Of a stretch of DNA of 41,259 nt, positions 5,138 through 41,011 are shown piece by piece. Each line of letters opens with the position of its first letter. Position 1 is the stretch's first letter. A program made the position numbers and the translations under genes. The notes beneath the pieces were generated by a model that saw only the letters and a list, made by a program, of their open reading frames with translations, had not been told where the DNA came from and searched no databases. Origin of the DNA: Minisyncoccia bacterium (GTDB lineage Bacteria; Patescibacteriota; Minisyncoccia; Phycocordibacterales; Zambryskibacteraceae); assembly GCA_049304335.1 (NCBI GenBank), contig JBAQOA010000027.1, forward strand, positions 1 to 41,259, in the 5' to 3' direction.

Positions 5138-6214
5138 TTAAGCCTCAATAAAGCTAAGTGTCATCTTCTGTTCTTTTGGATCAAAAGTTGAAATCTTAAA
5201 GTTATAAACTTTTCCAAGTCCAAGCTTTTCTCGAAGTTTTTCTTCAGTTCCAAATTCAGAAACATGCACGAGACCCGCAACACCTTCCTCGATAGAAGCC
5301 AAGGCACCGTGCTTGTTAAATTTGATTACAACACCCTTTACAGAATCACCCTTTTTGTATTTCTTTTCAGCGTCAGACCAAGGGTTTGGTTTTAATGCTT
5401 TGATAGAAAGAGAAATCTTTCCGTCTTTTATTTCAATTACTTTTACCTTTACACGATCACCAACTTTGTAAACAGAGCGAGGATTCTCAACTAATGACCA
5501 ATCCATTTCTGAAATGTGTACTAATCCTTCTAATCCTTCCTGAAGTTTTACAAAGATTCCGAAATCTACTGCGCCAGTAACTTCACCTAGTACTTCATCG
5601 CCGACAGAATATTTCTCTACCATGTCGCTCTTTGTTTTCTCGTTTTCGCCCTTTTCAGAGAAAATGAGTTTCCCTTCCTTAGGCATTGCTGCAATCATTG
5701 TGACTATAAAGTGTTCACCAACGAATTTTCTAAGTTCATCCAAGATTTTATCTTTATCACCATCTGCTACACGTGGGTAATGGTCCTGCTTTAGTTGTGA
5801 TGCAGGTAGAAAGCCTTGTATTCCTTGCCATTGCAAGATGAGACCGCCTTTGTTTGCGTCAACAACGGCCAAATCAAATTGCTTCTTTTCTTTAATAGCT
5901 TCATCTGCTTCTGCCCAGATTTGAGCCTGTCTTGCTTCCTTAAGAGAAATTTCAATGTAACCTTCAGGGTTATCAAAGCCCACAACTTTTCCTGCAATTG
6001 TGTCGCCAACATTTAGATTCTTAATAATGTCGCGTGCTTGCAAAAATTCTCTTCCGAAAATTATTCCAGTACCAAAAGGGGATAGGTCAATATAAACCGC
6101 CGCCTTTTCGATGCCGATTACTTTTCCTTCAATTATGTCTTCAGCAATTGGAGGAACAGGAGAATCAGCAACAATTTTATGCATTGCTGAATCTGCTTTT
6201 AATTCCTTATTCAT
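5138..6214 (-). CDS. rpsA: 30S ribosomal protein S1 (four S1/OB repeats)
   Basis: 358 aa with four repeats of the S1 motif pattern (G..V.G.V......G.FV.L..G..GLVHISE). Confidence 0.85.
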   Translation of the reverse strand: MNKELKADSAMHKIVADSPVPPIAEDIIEGKVIGIEKAAVYIDLSPFGTGIIFGREFLQARDIIKNLNVGDTIAGKVVGFDNPEGYIEISLKEARQAQIWAEADEAIKEKKQFDLAVVDANKGGLILQWQGIQGFLPASQLKQDHYPRVADGDKDKILDELRKFVGEHFIVTMIAAMPKEGKLIFSEKGENEKTKSDMVEKYSVGDEVLGEVTGAVDFGIFVKLQEGLEGLVHISEMDWSLVENPRSVYKVGDRVKVKVIEIKDGKISLSIKALKPNPWSDAEKKYKKGDSVKGVVIKFNKHGALASIEEGVAGLVHVSEFGTEEKLREKLGLGKVYNFKISTFDPKEQKMTLSFIEA

Positions 6215-6228
6215 TTTTGAATCCCACG

Positions 6229-6332
6229 ATCCCCCGTGAGATAAGCATTTTTAACTCTTATCTAAACTCTGATGTGAGATAGTATTTAAATTTTTTGGAA
6301 CACTACTTAAATTTACTATCTCACGGGGGGAT
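6229..6332 (-). promoter_or_regulatory. structured rpsA 5' leader with mutually exclusive pairings
   Basis: The segment TTAAATTTACTATCTCACGGGGGG (6308-6330) can pair with either of two partners. One is GTGAGATAGTATTTAA (6274-6289). The other is ATCCCCCGTGAGATA (6229-6243), which abuts the G-rich tract just upstream of the rpsA ATG. Confidence 0.45.
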
Positions 6333-6401
6333 TACGCGAGTTATTAATGGTTATTTCTATTAATCACCCGTCTTTCGAAGGGCACGGGAATAGTACAAGA
6401 G

Positions 6402-6436
6402 AAATGGCCGACCCGCAAGTGTGGGGTCGGCCATTT
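6402..6436 (-). terminator. intrinsic terminator of ORF 6451..6726
   Basis: AAATGGCCGACCC-GCAAGTGT-GGGGTCGGCCATTT. On the minus strand a T-rich run (TTTCTCTT) follows. Confidence 0.7.
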
Positions 6437-6450
6437 GTTTCTCACAAGAG

Positions 6451-6726
6451 TTAGTGCGGGTTCTTTCGCCTAAACTCCCGCTGGAACTCCACGCGTCTAA
6501 CCGTGGCGACGGAGTCCACATACTTCTTGAACTTCTTGCAGGTGGAATCCGGGACCGCCTCGCCGCGTTCCCACAGCGTGGGGATTGCAGTGAGGCCGAC
6601 TGATGTCGGCTCGACATCGCAGGGCGCCATTGTGCCAGCGGAGTGCTTGTTCTGCACTTCGTCGTACTTGAGCGCGCCAAATGTTATGGCGATGAGGAGA
6701 AACAGTATCAGCGTAACTACGCGCAC
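6451..6726 (-). CDS. small secreted or membrane-anchored protein (GC-rich islet)
   Basis: 91 aa. GTG start with AGGAG 8 nt upstream. N-terminal hydrophobic segment VVTLILFLLIAITFGAL. Two Cys residues. A terminator follows directly. Confidence 0.55.
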   Translation of the reverse strand: MRVVTLILFLLIAITFGALKYDEVQNKHSAGTMAPCDVEPTSVGLTAIPTLWERGEAVPDSTCKKFKKYVDSVATVRRVEFQREFRRKNPH

Positions 6727-6820
6727 GAAAAACTCCTATGTGAAGAGGGAAGGTACAGCAGACAATATTATAACAAATATTCTCGGGAATAGCAAATACG
6801 GAATTTTTATATAAAAGAAG

Positions 6821-6846
6821 AGCCCCTCGCTGCAAAGCGAGGGGCT
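6821..6846 (-). terminator. intrinsic terminator of ORF 6941..7504
   Basis: AGCCCCTCGC-TGCAAA-GCGAGGGGCT, followed on the minus strand by CTTCTTTTATAT. Confidence 0.7.
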
Positions 6847-6940
6847 AGGCTTCTAAGCCTTCTGTGTTTTTCTACCTTACACCGTCTCGACCGGTGTGGT
6901 AGTGAAAATGTTCACAATCCATCCTGTGAGGCCGGGCGGC

Positions 6941-7504
6941 CTAGAGTCGAGAGTAGAACCTCGGCGCGACCGGCGAAATTCCCGCAGCGTTGTCCGTCAT
7001 CGAGAAGACGTCGGAACATCGCAGGTAGAACGCGTTCTCCGTAGGTGTCGCGTTCCGATTCGCAGGGCTGGCCGCCACCTCACGGGGCGGCCGGTCGAGC
7101 GGCATGATGTTGCTGTAGCTTTTCCCCGAAAGGGGCCCCCAGGTCGATGCCGTGGCGTACGTGGTCGACGAGCAGCAAAGGTTGGTCTGCTGCTTGGCGG
7201 GCGGGCCGGTGTCGTAGAACGGCGTGGAGCCGTTCTCGGCGACAGGGGCTTCGACCGTCACGTCCAGCGTGCCGAGCGTGTTCTCAGCCTGGGCGGGCTT
7301 CTTGGCTGCCCAGCTGACGTCAACCGTCGTGGCGCTCGTGAGCGCGAAGCTCACATCGTACGGCGCAGCGAGGGGCGACTTCTGGCTGACCTGCTTGACC
7401 TTCGCTTCGGCCGCGTTGGCCGTGGGCGGTGCCATGGCGCCGGTCATCGCGATGGCGAAAATCGCCACCATGATGGGGTGCATGGTCTTGCGGGGCATCA
7501 TCAT
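6941..7504 (-). CDS. secreted protein (GC-rich islet)
   Basis: 187 aa. GAGAGG Shine-Dalgarno 6 nt upstream. Sec-type signal peptide MHPIMVAIFAIAMTGAMAPPTANA|AE. A beta-rich mature part follows (SFALTSATTVDVSWAA). It was chosen over the overlapping GC-rich frames because of the signal peptide, SD and terminator. Confidence 0.6.
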   Translation of the reverse strand: MMMPRKTMHPIMVAIFAIAMTGAMAPPTANAAEAKVKQVSQKSPLAAPYDVSFALTSATTVDVSWAAKKPAQAENTLGTLDVTVEAPVAENGSTPFYDTGPPAKQQTNLCCSSTTYATASTWGPLSGKSYSNIMPLDRPPREVAASPANRNATPTENAFYLRCSDVFSMTDNAAGISPVAPRFYSRL

Positions 7505-7673
7505 GCGGGCCTCTCGGCTCAGGTGATGGTGTTGGTAAAGTACTATCTGCCCTCAGGCAGGTAGTACCCACCGAGGAAAGGACATTATAGGAAATGGTTT
7601 TTTACTTGTCAATAGTCAGAATTTGTGGTGAAAAAAGTGGCTAAAATAGGCCATATTATGCTATAATAGGAGT

Positions 7674-8297
7674 ATGGTAATCACATATCACGGCTTGGAA
7701 TTTTTCAAAGTTACTTTTGGAAATACCACAATTGCTTTTAATCCGATCTCAAAAGATTCAAAAATAAAGGGTCCAAGATTTGGTGCAGATGTTGCTCTGA
7801 TTTCTGTAAAAGATAGAGATATGAATGGCGCAGACGCTGTTACTCGCGGAGAAAAAGAAACTTTTGTAATAAATGGACCCGGCGAATATGAAATCGGAGG
7901 ACTTACCGTGAAAGGCTTCGCATCAAAATCTGAATATGGAGGCGAAGAAAGAATGAATACAATTTATTTGGTCAATTTGGAGAATATGAATTTGTGTTTT
8001 TTGGGCGCGCTTGCGCACAAGGATTTAGACCCAAAAGTTTCTGAGGAGTTGGAAGATATCGATGTACTTTTCACACCAATTGGTGGTGAGGGCGTAATGT
8101 CTGGCGCGGAGTCATATAAAATGGCTGTTAAGTTGGAGCCAGCATTGATTATTCCTATGCACTATGACGATAAGTCTTTGAAAGTTTTTCTGAAGGAAGC
8201 TGGCGCAGAGAAAACTTCACCAATAGACAAATTAACTCTCAAGAAGAAAGACTTGGAAGGCAAAGAGTCTGACGTGGTTGTTCTAAAGGTAGAATAA
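7674..8297 (+). CDS. MBL-fold (UPF0173/YtkL-like) protein; canonical HxHxDH metal motif not evident
   Basis: 207 aa. AGGAG lies upstream of the ATG. The N-terminal ITYHGLEFFKV...IAFNP and C-terminal IIPMHYD blocks resemble the beta-lactamase-fold hydrolase family. The expected His cluster position reads VALISVKDRDMNG. Confidence 0.6.
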   Translation: MVITYHGLEFFKVTFGNTTIAFNPISKDSKIKGPRFGADVALISVKDRDMNGADAVTRGEKETFVINGPGEYEIGGLTVKGFASKSEYGGEERMNTIYLVNLENMNLCFLGALAHKDLDPKVSEELEDIDVLFTPIGGEGVMSGAESYKMAVKLEPALIIPMHYDDKSLKVFLKEAGAEKTSPIDKLTLKKKDLEGKESDVVVLKVE

Positions 8298-14923: not shown

Positions 14924-15289
14924 ATGAAAAAACTTATTACAGGTGCGTTGGGATTTGCATTGCCAGCTGTAGCTTTGGCTCAGACAGCACCAAATCTGAA
15001 CTATGTTGAACAGTTGTTATCAAGTATTTCAAGATTGGTTAATACAGCATTGCCAGTTATCGTAGCAGTAGCACTTTTGTTCTTCTTCTACGGTCTAGCA
15101 AAATTCATTCTCGCATCAGGTGGAGATGATGATGCTAAAAAGGCAGGTAAACACATCATGGTTTGGGGTATTGTTGCTCTGTTCGTGATGGTTTCAGTTT
15201 GGGGTCTAGTTGCATTCTTGGGTCAAGCACTAGGAATTCAGCAAGGTCAATCACTACCAAACGTGCCTTCAGTTAACCAAGTACGATAA
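14924..15289 (+). CDS. TrbC/VirB2-like pilin family protein, paralogue 5
   Basis: 121 aa. Signal peptide MKKLITGALGFALPAVALA|Q. Two TM helices are separated by SGGDDDAKKAGKH. The WGIVALFVMVSVWGLV block is shared with paralogue 3. Confidence 0.6.
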   Translation: MKKLITGALGFALPAVALAQTAPNLNYVEQLLSSISRLVNTALPVIVAVALLFFFYGLAKFILASGGDDDAKKAGKHIMVWGIVALFVMVSVWGLVAFLGQALGIQQGQSLPNVPSVNQVR

Positions 15290-15311
15290 TTTAATTTAGG
15301 AATTTCTATTT

Positions 15312-15572
15312 GTGGAAACATTCATTAGGAAAGTGGACGCGGCTATTTTAAACCCGATTATTACCCTCGGCTTTGCGATAGCGATGCTTGTATTCTTGTG
15401 GGGTATATTCGAGTTTGTGAGAAATCCTGCGGATGTAGAGAATAGAAAAAAAGGACAGAAAAATATTCTCTGGGGATTGGTAGGCTTAACGATTATGTTT
15501 GGAGTGTCAGGAATAATCAGAATAATTGCTGCCACATTCGGAATTTCTCTTCCACACTTTCTCTTCCCATAG
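15312..15572 (+). CDS. TrbC/VirB2-like pilin family protein, paralogue 6 (short, GTG start)
   Basis: 86 aa. Two TM helices are separated by NPADVENRKKGQKN. No obvious cleavable signal peptide. Confidence 0.45.
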   Translation: METFIRKVDAAILNPIITLGFAIAMLVFLWGIFEFVRNPADVENRKKGQKNILWGLVGLTIMFGVSGIIRIIAATFGISLPHFLFP

Positions 15573-15590
15573 AAATAAAAAATTAAATCG

Positions 15591-15621
15591 AAAAGGCCTC
15601 GACAATTCGTCGAGGCCTTTT
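15591..15621. terminator. bidirectional intrinsic terminator
   Basis: AAAAGGCCTCGAC-AATTC-GTCGAGGCCTTTT, with an A-tract and a T-tract on either side. It lies between the convergent pilin array and ORF 15631..16305. Confidence 0.75.
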
Positions 15622-15630
15622 CGTTTCATC

Positions 15631-16305
15631 TTACTTCTTGTTGCAATCCGCGCCGTATACGCGGGGCGTCTGAGCCACGATCACGCGCCCATCCTGTGGG
15701 AGCGTGAATCTGAGACTGTCGACAGCGCCGATGTCCGTCGCGTCGCCTCGGGTCAGGACCTTGTACTTCTCGCCGCGGCCCGTTTCCACGGTTGCCGTGT
15801 CGAGCTGCTTCGTCAGGTACGAGACCTTGAAGGAGCACTTGTCCGGATTGAGCCGGAACCAAACGCTCGGCTCTCCTGACTCGAGGTCAGCAGAGCTTAC
15901 CTGCGGCTCCGGAGGACTGTCCTTGGTGGAGGGCGCCAGCGTGGCGCTCTTCTTCGTCGTGTCGGCGCTCATTTGCGATGAGCAGCCGCCGCTCGTCTTG
16001 CAGTTGGGCAGGCCGTACTTCTTGATGCTGTAGCCCACCGCGAACACGAAGAGCATGATGGCAATGACCGCGAGAAGCGTCCGTGCCAACTGCCCGCCGT
16101 GCTGGCTGAACCAGTTGCCGATGCGCTGTCCGACGGACTGCGTGTTCGGCTGGCTGGGCGCCATGGGCGTCCAGAGGAGCGAGAAGAGGAACGACCCGAG
16201 GTCCCATGCGAGCATGAAGGTGAAGAACCACCAGCAGCCGGTTACCGGCCACAGGAGTCCCGTTCCGGCGGTAAGAACCGCGAGGATCAACCAGTAGATA
16301 AGCAT
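15631..16305 (-). CDS. integral membrane protein with a C-terminal soluble domain (GC-rich islet)
   Basis: The ATG at 16305 has GGAG 9 nt upstream. 224 aa with three predicted TM helices, then a Ser/Pro/Thr-rich linker and a beta-rich domain. The 5' extension in the track (to 16404) has no SD. Confidence 0.6.
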   Translation of the reverse strand: MLIYWLILAVLTAGTGLLWPVTGCWWFFTFMLAWDLGSFLFSLLWTPMAPSQPNTQSVGQRIGNWFSQHGGQLARTLLAVIAIMLFVFAVGYSIKKYGLPNCKTSGGCSSQMSADTTKKSATLAPSTKDSPPEPQVSSADLESGEPSVWFRLNPDKCSFKVSYLTKQLDTATVETGRGEKYKVLTRGDATDIGAVDSLRFTLPQDGRVIVAQTPRVYGADCNKK

Positions 16306-16527
16306 TGAGCTTTCTCCGAGGGGTTTTGAAGCGTGATGAAACGATGTGATGTACTTATATCTGGGTACTGATAGAAGTATAGCATACTGGCCACCCATTG
16401 TCAAGCACTAAAATCCAACCCATATGCGTAGGTTTTACTTAGTAATTTTGTATTAATTACAATACATTTTCGTCGTTCGGATTAAATACAAAAGTAAACT
16501 TTTGTGCCGAATCCTCACTTCTCACTG

Positions 16528-16608
16528 TGCCGAGGAGAGGACTTGAACCTCCACCCCTTGCGGGACTTGCTCCTAAGGCAAGCGTGTCTGCCATTTCACC
16601 ACCTCGGC
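16528..16608 (-). tRNA. tRNA-Leu(UAG)
   Basis: 81-nt cloverleaf. Acceptor stem GCCGAGG/CCTCGGC, anticodon loop CTTAGGA, long variable arm, T-arm GGAGG-TTCAAGT-CCTCT. No encoded CCA. Confidence 0.9.
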
Positions 16609-16795
16609 ATATTTATAGCTTACATGTTTAATTACTAAGCTTCTACTGCTTGTCGTCACGAATCACTAAATGTTTTGTTCTTCCAGACAAAACATTCAAG
16701 TGTTCGCGACCCCGGCTCGCAATTCCGATCTTTGCGGAATATAGCTCCGCCTCGGACAAGTGCGATAAAAATGTCGCAGACATTTTTCTGCCTTG

Positions 16796-16868
16796 TCCGC
16801 CCACTAGGGTTCGAACCTAGGACCTTATCCTTAAGAGGGATCTGCTCTACCAGCTGAGCTATGGGCGG
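16796..16868 (-). tRNA. tRNA-Lys(CUU)
   Basis: 73 nt. Acceptor stem CCGCCCA/TGGGCGG, D-arm GCTC-AGCTGGTA-GAGC, anticodon loop CTCTTAA, T-arm CTAGG-TTCGAAC-CCTAG. Confidence 0.85.
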
Positions 16869-17065
16869 AATACAAAAATATTAACAGATTTTGGCTTAAT
16901 TAAAAACCGTTCTTCGCTAATAGAGCTTCTCGAAAATATAGGAGAACCTTTTCGATTCCCAAGCAAAAACAAATAAATTTGTTTTTTGTGTCGGTTACAA
17001 CACACCTGCGTCGTTCGCGCCCAATAAGTTAGCAAGCTTTCTTACTCGGCGCTCTCTCCTTGTTG

Positions 17066-21754: not shown

Positions 21755-24445
21755 ATGCCACCATTTCAGCAATTTACAACCAAAGCGAAAGAGGCCATAC
21801 AGAAGGCCCATGAGCTTGCTATTGAAAGGGGACAAAATCATGTTAATCCTATGCATCTTTTGGCTGCATTAGTGACACAAGATGAATCAACAGTCAGTCT
21901 AATTTTGGATAGGCTAAACATTGATTCTATTCTTCTAACAGATTCGATTTTAGAATCACTAGAAAGCTCTGGGGGAACACAGACGCTATCATCTTCATAT
22001 CAAATTTATTTAACGCCAGAACTGGCACAAATTTTAGATGGTGGTATGAAGGTTGCGAAAAATCTTGGTGATGAATTTGTTTCTGTAGAGCACCTTTTAC
22101 TTTCACTTTTGGAAGTGCCAAGTGTTGCGCGCGATTTATTATCAAGATTTAAAATCGACAAACAAACCGTCTTACAAACAATTGATGAGTTGAAGACAAC
22201 AAAGGATGATAAAAGTAGAGATTTAAAAAAACCAAAATCAATTCTAAAGTACACTCGCTCACTAACCAAACTCGCAAAAGAAAATAAACTTGATCCTGTA
22301 ATAGGTAGAGATAATGAAATTGCTCGTATCATTCAAATTCTCTCCAGAAGAACAAAAAACAATCCCATACTCATTGGTGAGGCAGGAGTTGGTAAGACCG
22401 CAATTATAGAAGGATTGGCACAAAGAATTGCTACCGGCAACGTCCCAGAATCATTAAAAGAAAAAGATATTGTCTCTCTTGATTTGGGGCTTCTTATCGC
22501 TGGTACAAAATACCGAGGTGAATTTGAAGAAAGATTAAAAAATATTTTAAAAGAAATTGAACGTTCGGAAGGCAAAATTATTTTATTTATAGACGAAATT
22601 CATACCATAGTTGGAGCGGGTGCTGCCGATGGGGCAATGGATGCATCAAATATGCTTAAACCACCCCTTTCTCGTGGAGAATTAAGGGCTGTAGGTGCTA
22701 CTACCCTCAAAGAGTACCAAAAGCACATAGAGAAGGATCCAGCTCTCACAAGGCGCTTCCAGCCGGTATATGTAAATGAGCCATCTATAGAAGATGCCGT
22801 TGCAATACTTCGTGGATTGAAAGAGAAGTATGAGCTTTATCATGGCGTAAGAATTACCGATGAGGCGATTGTTTCCGCTGTTAATTTATCTTCCAGATAT
22901 ATTTCTGACAGATTTTTGCCAGACAAAGCAGTAGATTTGATTGATGAGGCCGCTTCACATATGAAAATTTCGCTTGAAAACATGCCTCCAATTCTTGAGG
23001 AAGCAAATACAAAAGTACGTCGACTAGAAATTGAGAAGGAGGCCCTAAAAAAAGAAGTTGCCACCACAAAGGACACCAAAACAAAGGCGCGCATAAAAGA
23101 AATAGAAGATGAGATTGCCGAATTTAAAGACCAGACAAGAGAAATTGAAATGAAGTGGAAGAGTGAAAGGGATATCGTCGAGTCTCTAAAGACTATTAAA
23201 AAAACATTAGAAAAGTTGCGTCACGAAGCAGAAGGGGCAGAAGCAAGAGCTGATTTGGCGCGTGCTGCCGAAATTCGTTATGGACATATTCCAGAACTTG
23301 AAAAAGATTTTGATTTGAAGAGCAAGAAATTAAAACGTTTGCAAGGTTCTCGCAGAATGGTTAGAGAAGAAATAACTGCAGAAGATATTGCGGATATTGT
23401 TTCTAGATGGACAGGTATTCCAGTGACAAGGATGCTTGAAAGGGAAGCAGAACGTTTATCTAGGATGGAAGAGTTCTTAACGGCAAGAGTCGTAGGTCAG
23501 GAAGAAGCTGTAAAAAAGATTTCAGACACAGTAAAACGCTCACGTGCGGGAATTTCTGATCCCAATAGACCGATTGGCTCGTTCATTTTCTTGGGTCCTA
23601 CAGGTGTTGGTAAGACAGAACTCACAAAAGCACTTGCAGAATTTTTGTTTGATGACGAAAGAGCATTGATAAGAGTTGATATGTCGGAGTTTATGGAGAA
23701 ACATTCAGTCTCAAAACTGATTGGCTCACCTCCAGGATATGTTGGTTATGAAGAGGGCGGTCAATTGACAGAGCTTGTTCGCCATCGGCCATATGCAGTA
23801 ATTCTGTTTGATGAAATCGAAAAAGCACATCCGGAAGTGTTTAATTTACTCTTGCAGGTTTTAGATAATGGACGATTGACTGACGCCAAAGGTAGGGTTG
23901 TGAATTTCAAAAACACTTTGATTATTCTCACCTCAAATATAGGTGCCCAATTTATAGACAAAATGGAAACTATTGGTTTTTCAGACAGTAGTAAAAAATC
24001 TGGTTATGAGGATGCGAAGGAAAAAGTTTTGGCATCTCTAAAAGATTATTTCAGACCTGAATTTTTGAACCGATTAGACGACATTGTTTTGTTTGATGTG
24101 CTTTCAAAAGAGGCAATAAAGAAAATTGTTGATATTCAAGTAAGTGAAGTGAAGAAGAGATTGGCCGACAGAGATATAGCACTTATCTTGAGCCCACAAG
24201 CCCTAGAATTGCTCGCTTCGGAGGGTTATAGCCCACAATACGGCGCAAGGCCACTAAAGCGCGTAATACAAACAAAAATACTCAATCAGGTCGCCTCTCT
24301 TATGTTGTCTAAAGGACTTTCAAGGGGTGGTGAAGTATCTGTTGGCGTGAAAAATAATGAGTTAGTGTTTGAAATCAAAAAAGGGAGAGGTGGTTCACTG
24401 TGGAGTGAAAAAAGTGTACCTAAAAAAGTAACTGCAAAGAAGTAG
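21755..24445 (+). CDS. clpB: ATP-dependent chaperone ClpB
   Basis: Clp_N repeats, two AAA+ modules ([18 protein letters not shown]), and a long coiled-coil middle domain. The ATG at 21755 is preferred over the TTG at 21737. Confidence 0.95.
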
Positions 24446-24449
24446 AAGT

Positions 24450-24478
24450 TTGTAATATGGCCAAATAAAGGTTATAAA
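24450..24478 (+). promoter_or_regulatory. sigma70-like promoter in front of the tRNA-Tyr fragment / GIY-YIG / tRNA-Tyr unit
   Basis: TTGTAA (24450-24455), a 17-nt spacer, then TATAAA (24473-24478). The predicted start lies a few nt before the tRNA-like 5' end at 24488. Confidence 0.4.
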
Positions 24479-24480
24479 TT

Positions 24481-24539
24481 AGCTTACGCGTCGGTGGTAG
24501 AGCTTGCCCCGCCATGGCGGGGTGAAGTCAATTACAACA
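24481..24539 (+). pseudogene. duplicated 5' half of tRNA-Tyr carrying a 25-nt hairpin insertion
   Basis: AGCTtAcGCGTCGGTGGTAGAG ... TCAATTACAACA repeats 24781-24817 of the intact gene (acceptor 5' strand to anticodon-stem 5' strand). The D-loop TGG is replaced by CTTGCCCCGCCATGGCGGGGTGAAG. Confidence 0.7.
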
Positions 24540-24782
24540 ATGTGGCATGTCTACGTTCTCAAAAGCCTAAAAACCAATAAATATTATATTGGATGTTCAA
24601 ATAATTTACCCAGAAGATTAAGAGAACATAACTCCGGAAAAAATATCTCAACAAAATTTGGAATACCGTGGGCATTAGTCTACGAAGAATTATTTGAGGA
24701 TCAAAAGCAGGCTTTCGATAGAGAAAAAAAGATAAAATCATATAAAGGTGGAAATGCGTTCAAAAAATTGCTAGATTTATAG
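24540..24782 (+). CDS. GIY-YIG nuclease superfamily protein (small stand-alone URI domain)
   Basis: 80 aa from the ATG at 24540. MWHVYVLKS...KYYIGCSNNLPRRLREHN...E...K gives the GIY, YIG, Arg and Glu landmarks. The track's upstream TTG start would read through the tRNA fragment. Confidence 0.8.
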   Translation: MWHVYVLKSLKTNKYYIGCSNNLPRRLREHNSGKNISTKFGIPWALVYEELFEDQKQAFDREKKIKSYKGGNAFKKLLDL

Positions 24783-24787
24783 CTAAT

Positions 24788-24870
24788 GCGTCGGTGGTAG
24801 AGTGGTCAATTACAACAGACTGTAAATCTGTCGCCTTCGGGCTACGAAGGTTCGAATCCTTCCCGGCGCA
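24788..24870 (+). tRNA. tRNA-Tyr(GUA)
   Basis: 83 nt. Acceptor stem GCGTCGG/CCGGCGC, anticodon arm ACAGA-CTGTAAA-TCTGT, long variable arm, T-arm GAAGG-TTCGAAT-CCTTC. Confidence 0.9.
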
Positions 24871-24883
24871 CAAAATAAAATAG

Positions 24884-24899
24884 CTTGGCTTTTGCCAAG
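24884..24899 (+). terminator. small stem-loop after tRNA-Tyr
   Basis: CTTGGC-TTTT-GCCAAG, followed by ACCATTTTATTT. Confidence 0.45.
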
Positions 24900-24919
24900 A
24901 CCATTTTATTTAACGTTGC

Positions 24920-25048
24920 GAAGGGTTCGAACTGTTGGAAGGGGGTCGGGGAAACGAGAGTTTCCCGTGCCGGAACAATTTAAACCGACGGGTTTAAAAG
25001 CGCAGTCCCGCTAGGGCGGGACGAGCAGTGAGATTCCTTCCCGGCGCA
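24920..25048 (+). repeat. tRNA-3'-end-linked GC-rich structured module, copy 1 (next to tRNA-Tyr)
   Basis: GAAGG-GTTCGAAC ... AGTGAGA-TT-CCTTC-CCGGCGCA. The interior blocks are shared with 41133-41259. The 3' 18 nt are identical to the tRNA-Tyr 3' end. Confidence 0.6.
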
Positions 25049-25055
25049 CAAAGAA

Positions 25056-25367
25056 GTGGAACAAATAAGAAATAAATACAATCCAGAGTTATACAATGAA
25101 TATTTGATGCGACTAAGGTCGTTGGTCAATATTAGTGACGAAGATGTTTTTGATGATTTCACCGAAGAGTTGACCCAATTTGCAAAAGAATTGAATGTTA
25201 AATATGGCGAAGATATAAGACGTCTAGCACTTTTTCATGCCTTAATCGGCAGTACTATTGGGCCATATACTGGTATAGAGGGCGATGATTTAGAGGGCAC
25301 TGATTCGATCGCTAAGTTTATTGATGATATGTATGGTAAGTACAAACAATACTTGCCAAAAGAGTAA
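25056..25367 (+). CDS. hypothetical acidic protein
   Basis: 103-aa ORF with host-like AT-rich composition. GTG start with a weak SD; the first ATG is 51 nt downstream. No motif recognised. Confidence 0.4.
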   Translation: MEQIRNKYNPELYNEYLMRLRSLVNISDEDVFDDFTEELTQFAKELNVKYGEDIRRLALFHALIGSTIGPYTGIEGDDLEGTDSIAKFIDDMYGKYKQYLPKE

Positions 25368-25388
25368 TTTTCGTTATTATAACCGTCT

Positions 25389-25544
25389 ATGTCACAAGAT
25401 CAGCTAATAATGTTGAGAAACAAAGAAACCGGCGAGGTGTATTACACTCGTAAAAATAAGCGTAAAGTAGAGCGAAAAATTGAGCTAAAAAAATACTCCA
25501 AAAAGCTTAGAAAGAGGATAACTTTCAAAGAAGCAAAGAAATAA
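25389..25544 (+). CDS. rpmG: 50S ribosomal protein bL33
   Basis: A 51-aa ORF, too short for the ORF track: MSQDQLIMLRNKETGEVYYTRKNKRKVERKIELKKYSKKLRKRITFKEAKK. The pattern is typical of L33, and a terminator follows. Confidence 0.8.
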   Translation: MSQDQLIMLRNKETGEVYYTRKNKRKVERKIELKKYSKKLRKRITFKEAKK

Positions 25545-25550
25545 CAAAAG

Positions 25551-25573
25551 AGTTGCCCTATGGCAACTTTTTT
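25551..25573 (+). terminator. intrinsic terminator of rpmG
   Basis: AGTTGCC-CTAT-GGCAACT followed by a T-run. Confidence 0.75.
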
Positions 25574-25574
25574 G

Positions 25575-25739
25575 TTATTTTAAAAGTCTTGTTGCTGGGC
25601 TCTTCAGGGGAGACTGGCGATAAGCGGCATTACGGTTGCTCATCCTCGGAGTACCCGGTCCCTGACGAAAAATGTTTCCAATCGGGCAGTGCCCGAAAAG
25701 TATTGAGAGCCACAGGCGAGGACTGTGGCTCTTTCTTTT
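25575..25739 (+). ncRNA. candidate small RNA (unassigned) in a GC-rich islet
   Basis: About 165 nt without a credible ORF. Pairings include TCAGGG (25604-25609) with CCCTGA (25660-65) and CGGGCA-GT-GCCCG. It ends in the terminator AGAGCCACAG-GCGAGGA-CTGTGGCTCT-TTCTTTT (25706-25739). The 5' end is not defined. Confidence 0.35.
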
Positions 25740-25861
25740 AAATAAATGAAGGAATCGGTCATGCATAATTTTCTGCTGAAAATTTACGTGACCCCGACTC
25801 GCACCGTCGCGCTTCGTCTTTTGGCACTTTACAGCCTCTTCGACACGTCTCGAGTGCTATT

Positions 25862-26809
25862 TTAAATAAATAAATATTCTCCTTTAACCCACCTATTTAA
25901 CACTTCCACGTGCAAATCATTTAGCCATCTTAAATTCTCTTTTTGCCATGTTGATCTCATGACACCAGCAAGGAAAAGTAAGGAATGAAGCTGAACGAAC
26001 TCTCGATCGATCTGTGATAATTTCCCATAACCAATAAAAAATTTTTCAAAAATTTCCATATTCGATGCTTTTACTTTTTGATCAATCATTAACCAGTAGA
26101 CAGTTTGTCCGATATCGGCCATGTCGTGGCCTTTCATGGAATTGTCGAAGTCGAATATACCACTAATCTCAAAATTTTCGTCGACATTAATGTTTGAGAA
26201 ATGGTAGTCCCAGTGAAGTGGGACGAAACGAAAATCTGGATAAGTGTCATAAAGATCTTGTAATCTTTTAAACTTTATTATCAGGAAATTCACTAGCTCC
26301 TTATTTATATTTTCTTGTGCAGCTGCTAAATACTTCTCGATTCGTATTTTTGTCCAATTAACCCATTCTTTTTGTGAAATTACTTCATGCTTTCCATGAG
26401 CCCAAAACGGCTGAATCTTCAAATCGTGAATTCTTTTAAGCGTTATTCCAGAACTAGTGAGGATTTTGTATCTGTTTTCGATAGACGCTGTTTCCCAAGC
26501 TTCAGAAGCTACGTTACCTGGTAAACAATCCATAACAGCCCAACCTCCATCGTCGTCTTTTACTATGTCGTGGATTTTGGGAGATGGCAGGCCATTTTTA
26601 CTTACATAATTTGAAATTCGTGCACTCTTTTCAATCTTTGCTTCAATTTTTTTAGGAAAGAATTTAATAGCTAAAGTTTTGTTTGGGTTATGAATCTCAA
26701 CTTTATACACACTACTAGTCAAACCTTTTGAAAATTTTATCACTGGGCCAATGACAGCATTTGGAAATAGTTTATGAACCGCCATTGAAGTTTTTTCTAA
26801 AAAATTCAT
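25862..26809 (-). CDS. aminoglycoside/choline-kinase-type phosphotransferase (APH family)
   Basis: 315 aa. The catalytic loop HWDYHFSNINVD fits the HxDxxxxN pattern, and the metal-binding segment is GIFDFDNS. Confidence 0.75.
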   Translation of the reverse strand: MNFLEKTSMAVHKLFPNAVIGPVIKFSKGLTSSVYKVEIHNPNKTLAIKFFPKKIEAKIEKSARISNYVSKNGLPSPKIHDIVKDDDGGWAVMDCLPGNVASEAWETASIENRYKILTSSGITLKRIHDLKIQPFWAHGKHEVISQKEWVNWTKIRIEKYLAAAQENINKELVNFLIIKFKRLQDLYDTYPDFRFVPLHWDYHFSNINVDENFEISGIFDFDNSMKGHDMADIGQTVYWLMIDQKVKASNMEIFEKFFIGYGKLSQIDREFVQLHSLLFLAGVMRSTWQKENLRWLNDLHVEVLNRWVKGEYLFI

Positions 26810-26905: not shown

Positions 26906-26928
26906 GCCCCGCGCATTGTGCGCGGGGC
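26906..26928 (-). terminator. GC-rich stem-loop after ORF 26934..27131
   Basis: GCCCCGCGCA-TTG-TGCGCGGGGC, a perfect 10-bp stem 6 nt after the stop codon. Confidence 0.6.
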
Positions 26929-36837: not shown

Positions 36838-37141
36838 GAACAGCACAAAAGACCGACTGGGTAGACTCCGCGGAATTCCATCCGCTCGAGGGGACTCAGT
36901 ACAGAATGAATCTAGGTTGGCAGTGGGCCACAGAGAGCGCTAGCCCGGCTAAACATCAAACGCCGCGCAAACCCTCCACCATTTCCGGGGACAGTCCTTG
37001 GACCCCCGTCAGAGATGCAGAACGCCCAACTATCTCAACCAATTTTCGTGGGAAGTAGATTTTTACTTCCTTTGTGGAGCGTCAAAACTCCCGGTCGAAC
37101 CATCGCGCTCACCCTGATTAAAGGGTGAGCGTTTTGTTTTT
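36838..37141 (+). ncRNA. unassigned structured RNA candidate, unit 1 of the ORF-free GC-rich locus
   Basis: A possible promoter lies upstream: TTGACA at 36803-36808, 16 nt, then TAAAGT. The GC-rich body contains hairpins such as GGAAGTA-GATTTT-TACTTCC. It ends in the terminator CGCTCACCCT-GATTAA-AGGGTGAGCG-TTTTGTTTTT (37106-37141). Confidence 0.4.
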
Positions 37142-37184
37142 CATAAATTTTGTAAATTTGACAATTTTATATATTTTGTGTTTG

Positions 37185-37863
37185 AACTTTTTAGGAGCTT
37201 GACTGTGGATAACTGTTTCTGTAATGTCTCTGCCAGACCGTTCTTAGACAAGTTGATTGGTTCATCTGGCAAAGAACAAACGGCAGATAAACCGCGGGGC
37301 AACCCACGGAAAATCCACCGCAAGTTCGTAGAGCCCGCAAGAGCTCTGCATCTGGTCGCCGTTCACGGCTACACCCAACTGTTACGACTAGCATACGGGT
37401 TAGCTAGTCGAGACATAACAGGCCGCAGTCCTCACGAGGGATTATCGGCAAGGGAAAATCCAAGTTTCGCTATCATGCGTCGGCAAGATAGTTTCGTACG
37501 GACTTCAAAGTCCATACGAACATCCCGCCTATCCACATAGGCGACGATGAAAACAAGGTACCAGAAAAGCAAGAACCAATGAAGACGGCCAGACCTCCAA
37601 AGTCCAGCCGATCCAAGGAAGTAAGCGAGGATGAAATCTCGCTGAAAACCTCGGAGTTGCGGATCGTCAATCCGCTCCTTCACGCACGAAGTTTCCGAAA
37701 GGAAACCCGTTGAACCTCGCTTCGGCAAGGTCCATCGCCTCTCCAGAGAGGTAAGTGCACAGCTTGTCACCCTTCTAGGGCGTATAGGTTCTGATGACCG
37801 AAAGGCCATAAGAATCCTCGCGCCCCCAAACGGGCGTCCTTCTACACGAAGGGCGCCCGTTTT
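37185..37863 (+). ncRNA. unassigned large structured RNA candidate, unit 2
   Basis: About 680 nt without a credible ORF. Tetraloop-capped hairpins include CCGCGGG-GCAA-CCCACGG (37292-37309) and GTTTCC-GAAA-GGAAAC (37691-37706). There are also an 8-bp stem at 37385-37410 and a 12-bp stem at 37493-37520. It ends in the terminator at 37828-37863. The 5' end is uncertain. Confidence 0.35.
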
Positions 37864-37904
37864 CACGTATTAGGTTGAAGTATTTTGTTTTATAAGTACT
37901 ATCC

Positions 37905-38135
37905 ACTGCAGAAAGGATGCACATTCACAGGTATGCAGCGGTCCCTCCCCGTGGCTACGTCCGTAAGGGCGGAAGCTATTTCAGTGATTCTTGGGCGAGA
38001 TTGGACTCTCCAATGACTGTGTTCGTGACAAGTGCTTAGTCGTGTTTGCACTTGTTCTAGTCGCGCTTGCATGCCACGACTGGACATCCGAAGTTTTGGG
38101 CGCGCATCCGTACAGGGTGCGCGCCCAATTTTTTT
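37905..38135 (+). ncRNA. unassigned structured RNA candidate, unit 3
   Basis: A possible promoter lies upstream: TTGAAG at 37875-80, 16 nt, then TACTAT. The body has nested stems such as AGTCGTG...CACGACT. It ends in a strong terminator, TTGGGCGCGCA-(11 nt)-TGCGCGCCCAA-TTTTTTT (38096-38135). Confidence 0.35.
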
Positions 38136-38153: not shown

Positions 38154-39122
38154 ATGAAAGAAAATTTTTGGGATAAATTAAAAAAGCCCATCTTTGTTTT
38201 AGCGCCAATGGCCGACGTCACTGACGTTTCTTTTCGCAGGGTAATTGCAAAATATGGCAAACCAGATGTTATGTGGACCGAGTTTGTGTCTGCAGATGGT
38301 TTGGTGCGAGCTACTCCAGAAGGAAAGAAAAAACTTTTAAAAGATTTGGAATATTCAGAAGGTGAGAGACCAATTGTGGCGCAATTATTTTCTGCCAATC
38401 CAGAATATATGTTTGAGGCTGCAAAGTTGGTCAAAGAATTAGGATTTGATGGCTTGGATATCAATATGGGATGTCCAGACAAAGGTGTAGAAAAGCAGGG
38501 AGCAGGAGCTGCACTAATGAAAAATTCAAAATTAGCACGAGAAATAATTCGTTCTGCAAAAAATGGTTTTGATGGACCAGTTTCAGTGAAGACCCGTATT
38601 GGCTATAACAAAGATGAGCTGGATGTATGGCTCCCAGAGATTTTGAAAGAAGGTGTTTCGTTGGTCACAATACATGCACGCACAAGAAAAGAAATGTCCG
38701 ATGTCCCAGCTAATTGGGAAAGAGTAAAAAGAGCAGTTGAAATTAGAAATGAATATGCGCCAGAGACTTTAATTTTCGGAAATGGAGATGTTGCCGGTGT
38801 TGATGATGCTAGGAAAAAATGCGAGGAATTTGGTTGTGATGGCGTAATGCTCGGGCGCGCAATTTTTGGCAACCCTTGGCTTTTTATGAAAAATCCACCA
38901 ACTGATGGACCAACAACTGAAGAAAAACTTAAAGTACTCGTTGAACACAGCAAACTTTATGATGAACTGATTACAGGATTTAAAAGTTTTTCGGTAATGA
39001 AAAAACATTTTAAAGCGTACGTAAATGGTTTTGATGGTGCTGTAGATTTAAGAAAAAAATTAATGGAAACAAATAATTCGAGCGAAGTTGAAATGATGGT
39101 AAATGATTTTCTAAAAAAATAG
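38154..39122 (+). CDS. tRNA-dihydrouridine synthase
   Basis: The ATG at 38154 lies after the terminator. VLAPMADVTDVSFRRV, QLFSANPE, INMGCP and IHARTR are Dus family landmarks. Confidence 0.88.
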   Translation: MKENFWDKLKKPIFVLAPMADVTDVSFRRVIAKYGKPDVMWTEFVSADGLVRATPEGKKKLLKDLEYSEGERPIVAQLFSANPEYMFEAAKLVKELGFDGLDINMGCPDKGVEKQGAGAALMKNSKLAREIIRSAKNGFDGPVSVKTRIGYNKDELDVWLPEILKEGVSLVTIHARTRKEMSDVPANWERVKRAVEIRNEYAPETLIFGNGDVAGVDDARKKCEEFGCDGVMLGRAIFGNPWLFMKNPPTDGPTTEEKLKVLVEHSKLYDELITGFKSFSVMKKHFKAYVNGFDGAVDLRKKLMETNNSSEVEMMVNDFLKK

Positions 39123-39221
39123 ACCAACAAAATTACTCTTTACTTTTTATTTTTTATATTGTACTCTTGTAAAAGAAGTAAAAGTACACGCTCCAACCAC
39201 GGCCCCATTTAGGAGGGGACA

Positions 39222-39896
39222 ATGCGCACCACAATGTTGGTTCTCGTGACGGCACTCCTTCTGGGGTGCAGGAAAGACGAGACGCTCGTGAGTCTGTATG
39301 ACTCTGGGCTTCCCACGTCGCCACAGGCGCCCGTTGGTGTCATGCAGGTCTTCATGAATCCGCACGCGGATTCGCTGAAGCTCGGCGACACCACCACTTT
39401 CGTTGCCCGTGCAATCCCTACTCGGGAAAGCGCAGGTTTCAATCGAAAGATCTTCTGGAGGTCGGCCGACACGACCATTGTGTCGCTGACTCAGGTGAGC
39501 GACACAAGCGTCCGCGCTACCGGCAAGAAGGTAGGCAGTGCCCAGATTCGTGGGTACGCCTCTGCCGATTCCAGCAAGTTTGCCACGGCGTCTCTCACGG
39601 TCTATACCGTGGCGCCGTCGCACAGCTCGCCGGTACAGCTGGTGAAGTTCGATGGCGATTCGGTCATCGCCGTCAAGGTGAATGAGAGTAGGCAGATGCC
39701 AGCTCCGCGCTGTGTGATGGTGAACCCAAGCGCGCCATGCGAGCTACTCTGGCGCTCGACCGACACCCTGACGCTTTCGGTGAATGCTACCGGAAGAATC
39801 ACGGGCAAGAAGGTAGGAAATGCGCAGGTGTATGTGCGGGTCAAGGCCGACACTACGTTCGTCGCGGTCTACCCGAAGCCTGTGCAGGTGAAGTAG
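39222..39896 (+). CDS. lipoprotein with two Big_2-like Ig domains (GC-rich islet)
   Basis: AGGAGG lies before the ATG. The lipobox is LLLGC. There are two repeats of the pattern W-R-S-x-D-T...V...ATG-K-K-VG-x-AQ. Confidence 0.7.
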   Translation: MRTTMLVLVTALLLGCRKDETLVSLYDSGLPTSPQAPVGVMQVFMNPHADSLKLGDTTTFVARAIPTRESAGFNRKIFWRSADTTIVSLTQVSDTSVRATGKKVGSAQIRGYASADSSKFATASLTVYTVAPSHSSPVQLVKFDGDSVIAVKVNESRQMPAPRCVMVNPSAPCELLWRSTDTLTLSVNATGRITGKKVGNAQVYVRVKADTTFVAVYPKPVQVK

Positions 39897-39923
39897 AGCG
39901 GAGGAGCGGAGAGGAGCAAAGCA

Positions 39924-39953
39924 GGGGCGCACGACAATTTCGTCGTGCGCCCC
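39924..39953 (+). terminator. intrinsic terminator of the lipoprotein gene
   Basis: GGGGCGCACGAC-AATTTC-GTCGTGCGCCCC followed by ATTTCGTT. Confidence 0.7.
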
Positions 39954-39979
39954 ATTTCGTTATATAATCAGACTCAAAT

Positions 39980-41011
39980 ATGGAAACACTCTACAGGAAA
40001 TATCGTCCCCAAAAATTTGCACAAGTGATTGGTCAGGACCATGTCGTTTCGGTGTTAGAGGCGTCAATAAAAAAGGGAAATATTTCACACGCATATTTAT
40101 TTTCTGGTTCACGAGGTACAGGCAAAACGTCTATAGCACGCATCTTGGCAAATGAAATTGGAACTCACGAAAATGATGTTTACGAAATGGACGCCGCTTC
40201 GCAAAATAGTGTTGATGATGTGCGGGCACTTGTAGATGGTGTGAACACAATGCCATTTCAGTCTAAATACAAAGTTTATATTTTGGATGAAGCTCATATG
40301 TTTTCAAAACAGGCGTGGAATGCACTTTTGAAAACTCTTGAAGAGCCACCTGCTCATGTAATTTTTGTTTTAGCTACAACCGAGTTGGAAAAAGTTCCTG
40401 AAACTGTAATTTCTAGGTGTCAGACATTTACCTTCAAAAAACCGTCAGAAGCTTTTTTGAAAGATGTAATAAATGACGCTTCAAAAAAAGAAGGTAAAAA
40501 ATTAAATAGTGATGCCGCAGAACTTATTGCACTTTTGGGTGATGGTTCGTATCGCGATGCATACGGCATTTTGCAAAAAGTTATTACTGTTTCAGACGAT
40601 AAAGAAATAACAGGAGAGGAAGTTGAGAAAGTGACTGGTGCTCCCAAGCACCAAACGGTTAATGAAGTACTTTTGGCAATCTCGAAAGGGGATTCAGCCA
40701 AAGCTTTAGAGGCTATAGGTACAGCATCAAAAGCTGGTACAGAAATCAAAACTTTTTTGAAACTTTTGATTTATAAAATGAGAGCAATTTTGCTTTTGCG
40801 ATTTGACCCAAGGTCGTCAAATTATTTAAGCGATAGATTTTCAAAAGAGGATATTGCTATTCTTTCTGAAATTGCGAAGGAAAAAACTTCAAAAATAAAT
40901 GCTAGTTCCTTGCTAGAGATTTTGAATGCCTACTCATCAGCGGGGCGCTTTGTGGTGCCAGAGCTTCCTTTAGAGCTTGCTTTGATGAGGATTTTGGGCG
41001 AGGATAAGTAA
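39980..41011 (+). CDS. dnaX: DNA polymerase III gamma/tau subunit (short form)
   Basis: 343 aa. Walker A GSRGTGKTS, Walker B ILDEAHM, sensor SRCQ. Confidence 0.9.
   Translation: METLYRKYRPQKFAQVIGQDHVVSVLEASIKKGNISHAYLFSGSRGTGKTSIARILANEIGTHENDVYEMDAASQNSVDDVRALVDGVNTMPFQSKYKVYILDEAHMFSKQAWNALLKTLEEPPAHVIFVLATTELEKVPETVISRCQTFTFKKPSEAFLKDVINDASKKEGKKLNSDAAELIALLGDGSYRDAYGILQKVITVSDDKEITGEEVEKVTGAPKHQTVNEVLLAISKGDSAKALEAIGTASKAGTEIKTFLKLLIYKMRAILLLRFDPRSSNYLSDRFSKEDIAILSEIAKEKTSKINASSLLEILNAYSSAGRFVVPELPLELALMRILGEDK

Follow-up and report, generated by a model that had tools for sequence, protein, structure and literature searches.

The stretch of DNA analysed here (the window; 41,259 nt, positions 1 to 41,259 of contig JBAQOA010000027.1 in NCBI GenBank assembly GCA_049304335.1) is a metagenome-assembled contig of an uncultured, ultra-small soil bacterium of the Paceibacteria type (Patescibacteria; candidate phyla radiation). 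At its tRNA-Tyr gene lies a compact cassette that consists of a GC-rich hairpin and an open reading frame (ORF) for a predicted GIY-YIG nuclease of 80 amino acids (aa). Downstream of the end of clpB (stop codon at 24443-45), the plus strand carries a promoter-like stretch, a displaced partial copy of the 5' part of tRNA-Tyr (hereafter the displaced 5' copy), the nuclease ORF, the intact tRNA-Tyr, a terminator-like hairpin and a partial copy of the tRNA 3' end (Table 1). The neighbouring genes are those for ClpB, a 103-aa ORF, L33 and an APH-family kinase; the 243-nt nuclease ORF is the only gene between the tRNA copies, and no second GIY-YIG gene was found in the window.

Table 1 Features of the tRNA-Tyr locus, in coordinates of the window.
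Feature	Coordinates	Strand	Basis or remarks
Promoter-like region of the native tRNA-Tyr	24450..24480	+	TTGTAA 24450-55, TATAAA 24473-78 (17-nt spacer) or TAAATT 24475-80; read from sequence
Displaced 5' copy, outer segment: 8-nt leader and tRNA positions 1-15	24480..24502	+	Repeat D1
Hairpin module CTTG-CCCCGCCATGGCGGGG-TGAA, 24 nt	24503..24526	+	Palindrome 24507-24522; replaces D-loop TG
Displaced 5' copy, inner segment: tRNA positions 18-30, ends in the 5' strand of the anticodon stem	24527..24539	+	Repeat D5
GIY-YIG nuclease ORF (predicted), 80 aa, TAG stop	24540..24782	+	Pfam PF01541, E=2.6e-15
Intact tRNA-Tyr(GTA)	24788..24871	+	ARAGORN; Rfam RF00005, 60.3 bits, full length
Terminator-like hairpin CTTGGCTTTTGCCAAG, then T-rich tail	24884..24910	+	Terminator scan
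3' partial tRNA copy	24916..25052	+	Repeat D2, 20/21
Neighbouring 103-aa ORF, outside the cassette	25056..25367	+	Start abuts the 3' partial copy

A repeat search resolved the displaced 5' copy into two blocks that recur at the start of the intact gene. The outer block (D1) is found again at 24780-24802 with 21/23 identical positions, both mismatches lying in the leader, while the inner block (D5) recurs at 24805-24817 without any mismatch (13/13). A preliminary description of the locus had proposed that the 5' part of tRNA-Tyr is duplicated around the GIY-YIG ORF. This holds for both blocks, with the correction that the insert between them comprises 24 nt replacing 2, not 25 replacing 3. It had also stated correctly that the ORF fills the space between the copies: the ATG begins with the base right after the D5 repeat, and the TAG stop (24780-82), which falls within the duplicated leader, ends 5 nt upstream of the intact tRNA-Tyr. 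When each tRNA gene of the window was aligned locally with its own flanks and scored against shuffled flanks, tRNA-Tyr reached z=10.3 for its left flank and z=10.5 for its right flank, which bears out the earlier claim that this gene is flanked on both sides by partial copies of itself. By the same comparison, none of the other seven tRNA genes of the window has flanking partial self-copies, and the sole other high scores came from two tRNA-Leu genes that match each other (z = 8-9). The region 24390-25228 is also covered, with zero differences, by an 839-nt contig assembled independently from a different sample of the study.

As the downstream copy of tRNA-Tyr was recognised as complete by both ARAGORN and Rfam, it is presumably the working one. 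For the same reason, that this copy is complete by itself, a split or permuted tRNA gene or a tRNA intron was rejected. A search of Rfam, which includes ribozymes and other RNA families such as the group I intron, returned only the tRNA over 23500-26000; in seven related loci it gave tRNAs plus weak sub-threshold chance matches, so that neither the leader nor the 3' module could be assigned to a family. The promoter TTGTAA-17-TATAAA ahead of the displaced 5' copy, to which the preliminary description had drawn attention, is present and its flank is conserved in relatives, although it is missed by a strict consensus scan whose rule demands a T at position 6 of the -10 box. The upstream flank of the displaced 5' copy, CAAATAAAGG.TA.AAATTAGC (stretch CAAATAAAGGTTATAAATTAGC), is orthologous to the stretch just 5' of the intact tRNA-Tyr in two relatives (L084 and L083; L numbers denote genomic loci). 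On this orthology, the displaced 5' copy is the original 5' end of tRNA-Tyr, still joined to its native promoter region.

We compared the locus with those of the eight closest ClpB proteins (82-87% identical), seven of which lie on contigs that extend past clpB, the contig of L087 ending at this gene. The order shared at these loci is IF-2, DUF4446, an aminotransferase, a gene of ~254 aa, ClpB, tRNA-Tyr, an ORF of ~100 aa and L33. In all seven relatives reaching past clpB (7/7), we found neither a GIY-YIG match nor a family hairpin (described below) nor a 5' copy near tRNA-Tyr. The uninvaded tRNA-Tyr locus that the preliminary description had hoped to find by comparison is best represented by L083, where clpB is followed by 42 nt, the tRNA-Tyr, a single A and the ATG of the next ORF (GGCGCAC-A-ATG). 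L084 is likewise without the 5' cassette and has a 3' module like that of the window. In L081 (tRNA at 3033-3116) and L088 the tRNA-Tyr is inverted relative to clpB, L082 and L086 contain ~0.5 kb of extra DNA between clpB and tRNA-Tyr, and L085 has different downstream genes. With four or five states among eight relatives, the clpB-tRNA-Tyr spacer is a rearrangement hotspot. At L088, T-arm-like fragments adjoin clpB.

With more distant proteins as outgroup, ClpB trees place the window as the sister of L081, inside a nine-member clade with 99-100% support. Seven of the eight other members are without the cassette, the eighth being L087. The window is therefore nested among cassette-free relatives, and a single gain stands against at least four precise losses. 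From this nesting we infer a lineage-specific gain of the cassette as the most economical reading, and the earlier proposal of an invasion of the tRNA-Tyr gene by a cassette, with one complete tRNA kept or regenerated, is sustained by the seven syntenic relatives that are without ORF, hairpin and 5' copy. Filled and empty alleles thus exist at one orthologous site among relatives, a pattern also shown by free-standing homing genes.

The cassette has a longer history in the wider group. Ten more-distant Paceibacteria, whose ClpB C-terminus is 66-76% identical, have clpB beside the partial copy, hairpin, ORF and tRNA-Tyr, and an eleventh (L010) matches weakly. In nine of these loci clpB lies upstream on the same strand, and in L003 and L019 downstream on the opposite strand. 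These carriers likewise have the hairpin in the D-loop and the junction near tRNA position 30, and their presence beside clpB indicates that the cassette is old at this locus in the wider group. Distances between the ORFs and between the ClpB proteins were weakly related (Mantel r=0.28, p=0.085), a value that marks neither strict vertical descent nor clear transfer. Some pairs are clearly out of step, L013 and L005 being 79% identical in ClpB and 56% in the ORF. L002 and L009 are 72% identical in both. We read this as gain and loss, probably with some horizontal movement between orthologous sites.

On the other side of the intact tRNA-Tyr, the 3' partial copy consists of a T-arm-like piece RGGATTCGAAAG (24918-31), ~90-100 nt of hairpins and the tRNA 3' end. 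The latter, at 25032-25052, repeats 24854-24874 with 20/21 identical positions and corresponds to the last 17 nt of the tRNA plus CAAA (D2). Hairpins were located at ~24949-66, 24979-98 and 25005-22, the last of these being of the family type (GTCCCGC-TAG-GGCGGGAC), and the DNA of the module folds with z=-3.5. The start of the ~100-aa ORF, which follows the tRNA 3' end in L083, follows the 3' partial copy in both L084 and the window. The 3' copy thus keeps the native junction with the next ORF, which identifies it as the original 3' end. Judged from these junctions, all the DNA between the displaced 5' copy and the 3' copy, the working tRNA included, is new or rearranged. Copies of the tRNA 3' end 123-185 nt past the tRNA were also found in L002, L005, L011, L012, L013, L015 and L080, and in the ORF-free L084; in total, such a 3' fragment is present in 9/52 loci with the order partial 5' copy, ORF, tRNA, the window included. 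The inserts of these modules differ in sequence between lineages, and two sub-types can be distinguished, GGTGTAC..CCTGTAAGG in L015, L005 and L084 and CGGAGC...CGCGAGG in L002, L012 and L013. From its sequence, the 3' module may be the far border of a nested whole-tRNA insertion, L084 having since lost the ORF, or it may be the scar of a separate, older event.

To see whether the layout extends beyond this locus, as the preliminary description had recommended, other small GIY-YIG genes were surveyed at 80 genomic loci of roughly 5 kb each, whose homologues are 47-70% identical and come mostly from Patescibacteria. A same-strand tRNA lies within 600 nt in 78/80 homologues, usually within 15 nt, and in ~70 of them within ~120 nt. 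The tRNAs concerned are of the types Tyr, Ser, Gly, Pro, His, Thr, Glu, Lys, Met and Gln. The duplication of a tRNA part also recurs: in 58/71 testable loci, the flank of the ORF opposite the tRNA is more similar to that tRNA than 95% of mismatched controls are, and in 44/71 than 99% of them. Nuclease genes at unrelated sites and free of tRNA duplication, which the preliminary description had named as evidence against its reading, are therefore not what the survey showed. Two mirror forms occur, partial 5' copy-ORF-tRNA, as in the window, and tRNA-ORF-partial 3' copy. At many loci the ORF lacks its own stop codon, and its reading frame runs on into the tRNA. The partial copy follows lineage-specific changes on both sides of the D-stem of the local tRNA, and in the ORF tree the tRNA type clusters yet switches several times, as does the side on which the ORF lies. 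Duplication of the leader gave a weak signal across the family (3.8/8 positions versus 2.7 in controls).

A search of 1.84 billion cluster representatives with the family profile yielded 22,428 representatives at E<=1e-3 and 4,643 at E<=1e-10, from the candidate phyla radiation, Bacteroidota and other phyla. The distribution of the family across phyla is patchy. No family member was matched in phage and plasmid collections. We found no description in the literature that links GIY-YIG genes to hairpin-plugged partial tRNA copies, and a 2006 survey of GIY-YIG proteins leaves the layout unmentioned.

The preliminary description had missed that the GC hairpin is no local accident: as a signature element, it is conserved throughout the family. 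In the window, its core is a perfect 16-nt palindrome that folds into a 7-pair stem, including one G-T pair, with a CATG loop. Within 250 nt of the ORFs the density of the motif YCCCGCC-N2-5-GGCGGGR is 2.58 per kb, against 0.077 per kb in the remaining parts of the loci, a 33-fold enrichment, and a hairpin is present on the side of the partial copy in 61/75 loci. Its outer pair covaries (C-G in 45, T-A in 27, other in 3). The loop varies in length and in some loci holds nested inserts, and such variation favours a folded hairpin over a fixed double-stranded site. Within the partial copies, the hairpin occupies the D-loop or the T-loop, or else it lies in the anticodon arm or takes the place of this arm. 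It is always near the ORF, at a distance of 9-29 nt in most loci. If the ORF precedes the tRNA, its ATG is a median of 20 nt from the end of the hairpin (5-30 nt in 35/43; 17 nt in the window), and if the ORF comes after the tRNA, the hairpin begins a median of 6.5 nt past the stop codon in 18/18 loci. Given this fixed spacing, hairpin and ORF behave as one compact unit, whatever the tRNA. The window has family hairpins at the two partial copies of tRNA-Tyr only, one on each side of the ORF-tRNA unit. A role of the hairpin as a transcription terminator was rejected, as no T-run follows it.

The protein itself is a bare UPF0213/SLX1-like domain with a predicted nuclease function. Pfam PF01541 covers residues 1-67 of 80, the remainder being one short conserved helix, and neither Pfam nor the alignment nor the structural model showed an added DNA-binding domain in the 80-aa protein. 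In an alignment of 35 homologues, Y5, Y16, G18, R26, H30, E62 and N72 are invariant, the family starts with MW.VY, and the C-terminus carries the motif IKSYKGGN. The domain match, the conserved Tyr/Tyr/Arg/Glu positions and the predicted alpha/beta fold (AlphaFold pLDDT 92) are those of the GIY-YIG superfamily. The nearest solved proteins in a profile search were the UPF0213 members BH0048 and EF2693, then SLX1; in a fold search, UPF0213 (1zg2) and SLX1 ranked best (TM ~0.7), followed by the catalytic domain of I-TevI. The true start of the ORF is the ATG at 24540. Gene callers place it at TTG 24504, which gives 92 aa with the hairpin translated as MPRHGGVKSITT, and the same false N-terminus is found in the database proteins P0007, P0011, P0016 and P0034. 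Several homologues annotated with an upstream start carry the peptide PR.GGVKSI, which is the translated hairpin and D-loop fragment; its recurrence was the first sign that the hairpin is conserved.

Individual loci and regions show further features. At L007 and L065, the 20 nt 5' of the partial copy are identical to the 20 nt 5' of the intact tRNA, and the last 12 nt of the ORF in L007 belong to the identical stretch; the identity points to a local duplication of the leader and the start of the tRNA, or to cassettes arranged in tandem. Another GIY-YIG match, more diverged, is located no more than ~1.3 kb from the first one in L013, L016, L022, L034, L044, L056, L057, L062 and L063 (within ~0.9 kb in all except L013 and L063), which indicates that cassettes can be adjacent or in tandem. 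Two proteins of 205-214 aa (P0178 and P0179) each contain two matched stretches. In the cultured Draconibacterium halophilum (CP048409; L089, 1350-1800), a GIY-YIG homologue follows tRNA-Pro(CGG). The left hairpin half TCCCGCC ends the upstream partial copy and the right half GGCGGGA begins the downstream partial copy, so that tRNA and ORF lie inside the split hairpin of a second tRNA-Pro-like copy. Elsewhere in the window, a different GC palindrome, CCCGCGCA..TGCGCGGG, is located at 26908-26926, just upstream of the minus-strand tRNA-Trp, and is conserved at L083 (6924) and L088 (6837). It is not the cassette hairpin, and this tRNA-Trp has no partial copy. The G+C content rises to 47-52% at 6001-8000, 15001-17000, 37001-38000 and 39001-40000, against a background of ~39%, and the G+C-rich stretch at 15-17 kb coincides in part with four clustered tRNA genes.

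Among characterised systems, the Ssn family (cd10448) is the best biochemical analogue of the predicted nuclease. Ssn enzymes are single-domain GIY-YIG proteins of 94 aa that act as site-specific single-stranded-DNA nucleases; their binding of a hairpin with the stem ATTCCCGC/GCGGGAAT is restricted to single-stranded DNA, the cut is made a few nt to the 5' side of the hairpin, and double-stranded DNA and RNA stay uncut (Chenal et al. 2025, PMC11893778). Hairpins of this kind often lie on both sides of the genes, in the layout NTS-ssnA-NTS, and the paper makes no mention of tRNA (PMC11893778). The likeness to the cassette comprises the single GIY-YIG domain of ~80-94 aa with corresponding residues (Y5/Y16/E62 here, Y6/Y17/E64 in SsnA), the lack of an added DNA-binding domain (80 aa here, ~90-100 aa in the family), and GC-rich hairpins that accompany the gene and share the stem core CCCGC...GCGGG, the window having one on each side of the gene. 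The hairpins differ, however, in sequence and distribution. The SRM pattern HGTCWY-N0-2-YYVSBRH-N0-5-WNVSBRG-N0-2-RNCYNB, which in a control did match the NTS consensus, was absent (0 matches) up to 300 nt from the ORF in all 75 loci, and from the locus of the window, and the hairpins described here occur almost only in partial tRNA copies (in the window and the ~5-kb loci), whereas the Ssn repeats are dispersed.

Other systems share one or two aspects of the layout. Homing genes such as segB of phage T4 (PMC2330249) resemble the cassette in being small, free-standing GIY-YIG genes among tRNAs with a presence/absence polymorphism, whose spread presumably proceeds by recombination with flanking homology. 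In contrast to the cassette, Seg enzymes measure ~200 aa or more and have DNA-binding domains, and their phage-borne genes are intergenic and leave neither partial tRNA copies nor hairpins. The mobile endonuclease ORFs of fungal mitochondria insert at the end of a gene and bring a replacement terminus (e.g. Allomyces atp6). Here too, the host gene is kept whole by partial duplication and the displaced terminus lies on the far side of the ORF; the targets, however, are organellar protein-coding genes, the enzymes are larger and no hairpin is involved, whereas the cassette has 5'-side and 3'-side versions and bacterial tRNA targets. REP/BIME-RAYT and IS200/IS605 systems combine a small nuclease gene with short, GC-rich hairpins, probably recognised in single-stranded form, which also occur without the gene, as in the 3' module. 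Their HUH tyrosine enzymes form covalent intermediates and rejoin DNA, which a GIY-YIG hydrolase cannot do, and their repeats are dispersed over the genome and not confined to tRNA copies. Identity with either system was rejected, the sole gene of the cassette being the GIY-YIG ORF and not an HUH (Y1) transposase. Integrase islands and prophages also use a tRNA gene as a landing site, keep the tRNA intact and leave a partial copy at the far border. The insert here is ~0.28 kb and not tens of kb, 5'-side duplications are common and the copies are hairpin-plugged, and an integrase island was rejected as there is no tyrosine or serine integrase between the tRNA and the partial copy. UPF0213 proteins (BH0048 and EF2693; YhbQ also belongs to this group) and SLX1, which is DNA-structure-selective, are closest by sequence profile and fold. 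No tRNA-embedded layout or hairpin partner is described for them, and SLX1 differs in needing SLX4 and having a RING domain. The cassette belongs to a widespread and apparently undescribed variant of nuclease-hairpin selfish DNA.

In our view, the locus is probably explained by a selfish cassette of hairpin and 80-aa GIY-YIG ORF that resides in the 5' part of the single tRNA-Tyr gene, is transcribed from the tRNA promoter and spreads via tRNA homology. The cassette would have no promoter of its own, and read-through from the tRNA promoter would produce a transcript of the leader (displaced 5' copy and hairpin), the nuclease mRNA and the tRNA, from which tRNA processing would then free the tRNA. 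Neither the sequence nor a promoter scan revealed a convincing promoter in the 3' end of the ORF. A look through RNA sequencing runs turned up none that contain the sequence of the window. Persistence may be aided by the essential tRNA being now dependent on this read-through, and the hairpin, which interrupts the direct repeat, may slow the loss of the cassette by recombination between the repeats. Spread and persistence would proceed by recombination in which the tRNA-identical segments serve as portable homology, either as homing-like gene conversion or as Campbell-like insertion-duplication. By analogy with Ssn, the nuclease would stimulate recombination by attacking single-stranded DNA adjacent to the cassette hairpin, within the tRNA-derived segment that forms the outer flank of the hairpin. 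It would not be expected to cut intact double-stranded tRNA genes, and such cutting is unlikely. A cut 5' of the hairpin would fall at tRNA positions ~8-16 of the displaced 5' copy, where a Campbell-like crossover must occur for the observed duplication. If the analogy is correct, the position of the cut fits the geometry of the duplication.

Several points weigh against this explanation. The distant relatives with a cassette at the same locus make ancient vertical presence with repeated loss conceivable, and precise loss by direct-repeat recombination would be mechanically easy. The homology available for recombination is short (23 nt + 13 nt), and the leader match of 6/8 in the window is no more than suggestive, ~2% of mismatched locus pairs reaching the same value. 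There is no near-identical copy of the ORF elsewhere, and with a best homologue of only ~70% identity a recent transfer cannot be traced. Contigs of four metagenome runs contained no excision or deletion joints, although contigs hide rare variants. The hairpins match the published Ssn-related motif pattern in 0/75 loci. Finally, empty sites are out of reach for an enzyme dependent on its own hairpin, so that a homing-type drive is not obvious.

A possibility that we entertain only tentatively addresses the means of movement, namely that the hairpin and the bare 80-aa nuclease might together form a mobile element without a recombinase. The enzyme would nick beside the hairpin in single-stranded DNA exposed by heavy tRNA transcription, replication or DNA uptake, and the tRNA-derived segment would serve as a portable attachment site. 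The freed tRNA-identical ends could then recombine with a tRNA gene by Campbell-like or annealing-type insertion-duplication, which would yield a hairpin-plugged partial copy next to an intact tRNA, with lone hairpins or modules remaining after loss. Such an element would explain the fixed distance between hairpin and ORF, the mirror 5' and 3' versions, the jumps between tRNA types and the split hairpin of Draconibacterium.

It is unlikely that the ORF is instead an old, vertically inherited host gene, an Ssn-like single-strand nuclease kept in tRNA operons, for example to control recombination or transformation, with the partial copies as by-products of local duplication and the relatives having lost it. 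The ten more-distant Paceibacteria that carry it by clpB and tRNA-Tyr, catalytic residues conserved over large distances, the host-level role of Ssn in Neisseria transformation and the ease of precise loss between direct repeats would all suit such a history. It requires, however, at least four independent precise losses in the clade of the window, runs counter to the barely correlated distances of ORF and ClpB, and has to accommodate several switches of tRNA type and side on the ORF tree as well as the patchy distribution across phyla. A host gene would also have no need to split a tRNA gene and leave hairpin-plugged copies at locus after locus.

Classical homing, in which the 80-aa enzyme would cut the intact double-stranded tRNA-Tyr of cassette-free cells and repair of the break would copy the ORF together with the displaced tRNA piece, is in our opinion improbable. 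Presence and absence at one precise site and the recurrence of the same register in many genomes speak for it, and fungal mitochondrial mobile endonuclease ORFs leave a displaced gene terminus in a comparable way. Free-standing GIY-YIG homing enzymes are also known, SegB from the tRNA cluster of phage T4 among them (PMC2330249). Yet the protein encoded here is a bare catalytic domain without a DNA-binding domain, its nearest relatives by sequence and fold are of the UPF0213/SLX1 type and not Seg or I-TevI, and a conserved ORF-linked hairpin is foreign to homing endonuclease genes. Moreover, the filled allele retains an unaltered tRNA that such an enzyme would also cut.

We regard it as quite improbable that the partial copy and the hairpin form a functional RNA selected at the RNA level, be it as a leader for stability or processing, or as a tRNA-like decoy by which the expression of nuclease or tRNA is tuned. 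The element lies between promoter and ORF and should thus be part of the 5' leader, the outer pair of its hairpin covaries, and the partial copy tracks lineage-specific D-stem changes of the local tRNA. When the ORF is downstream of the tRNA, however, the same hairpin comes after the ORF, and the other copy in the window lies beyond the terminator-like hairpin. The near-invariant stem sequence points to recognition by a protein over structure alone, Ssn does not bind RNA, and no Rfam family matches. Chance similarity, misassembly or a plain tandem duplication unrelated to the nuclease, which the short repeats (23 and 13 nt) on a metagenome-assembled contig might suggest, is hardly credible in view of z ~10 on both flanks, an independent contig from another sample that is identical across the structure, and the same architecture at dozens of unrelated loci.

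The window adds to this family a clean comparison of filled and empty alleles at an orthologous site, a 5' copy that represents the original promoter-bearing end of the tRNA gene, and a quantified, tight linkage of hairpin and ORF. For annotation, the finding means that gene callers extend the ORF through the hairpin and that partial tRNA copies confuse tRNA counts. It also bears on the evolution of tRNA operons, the states of the clpB-tRNA-Tyr spacer differing even among close relatives. For enzymology, the association of a bare catalytic domain with a conserved hairpin may represent a new combination of nuclease and single-stranded-DNA hairpin specificity, similar to the Ssn tools. Should the class be what it appears to be, tiny selfish elements have gone unnoticed inside bacterial tRNA genes in very large numbers.

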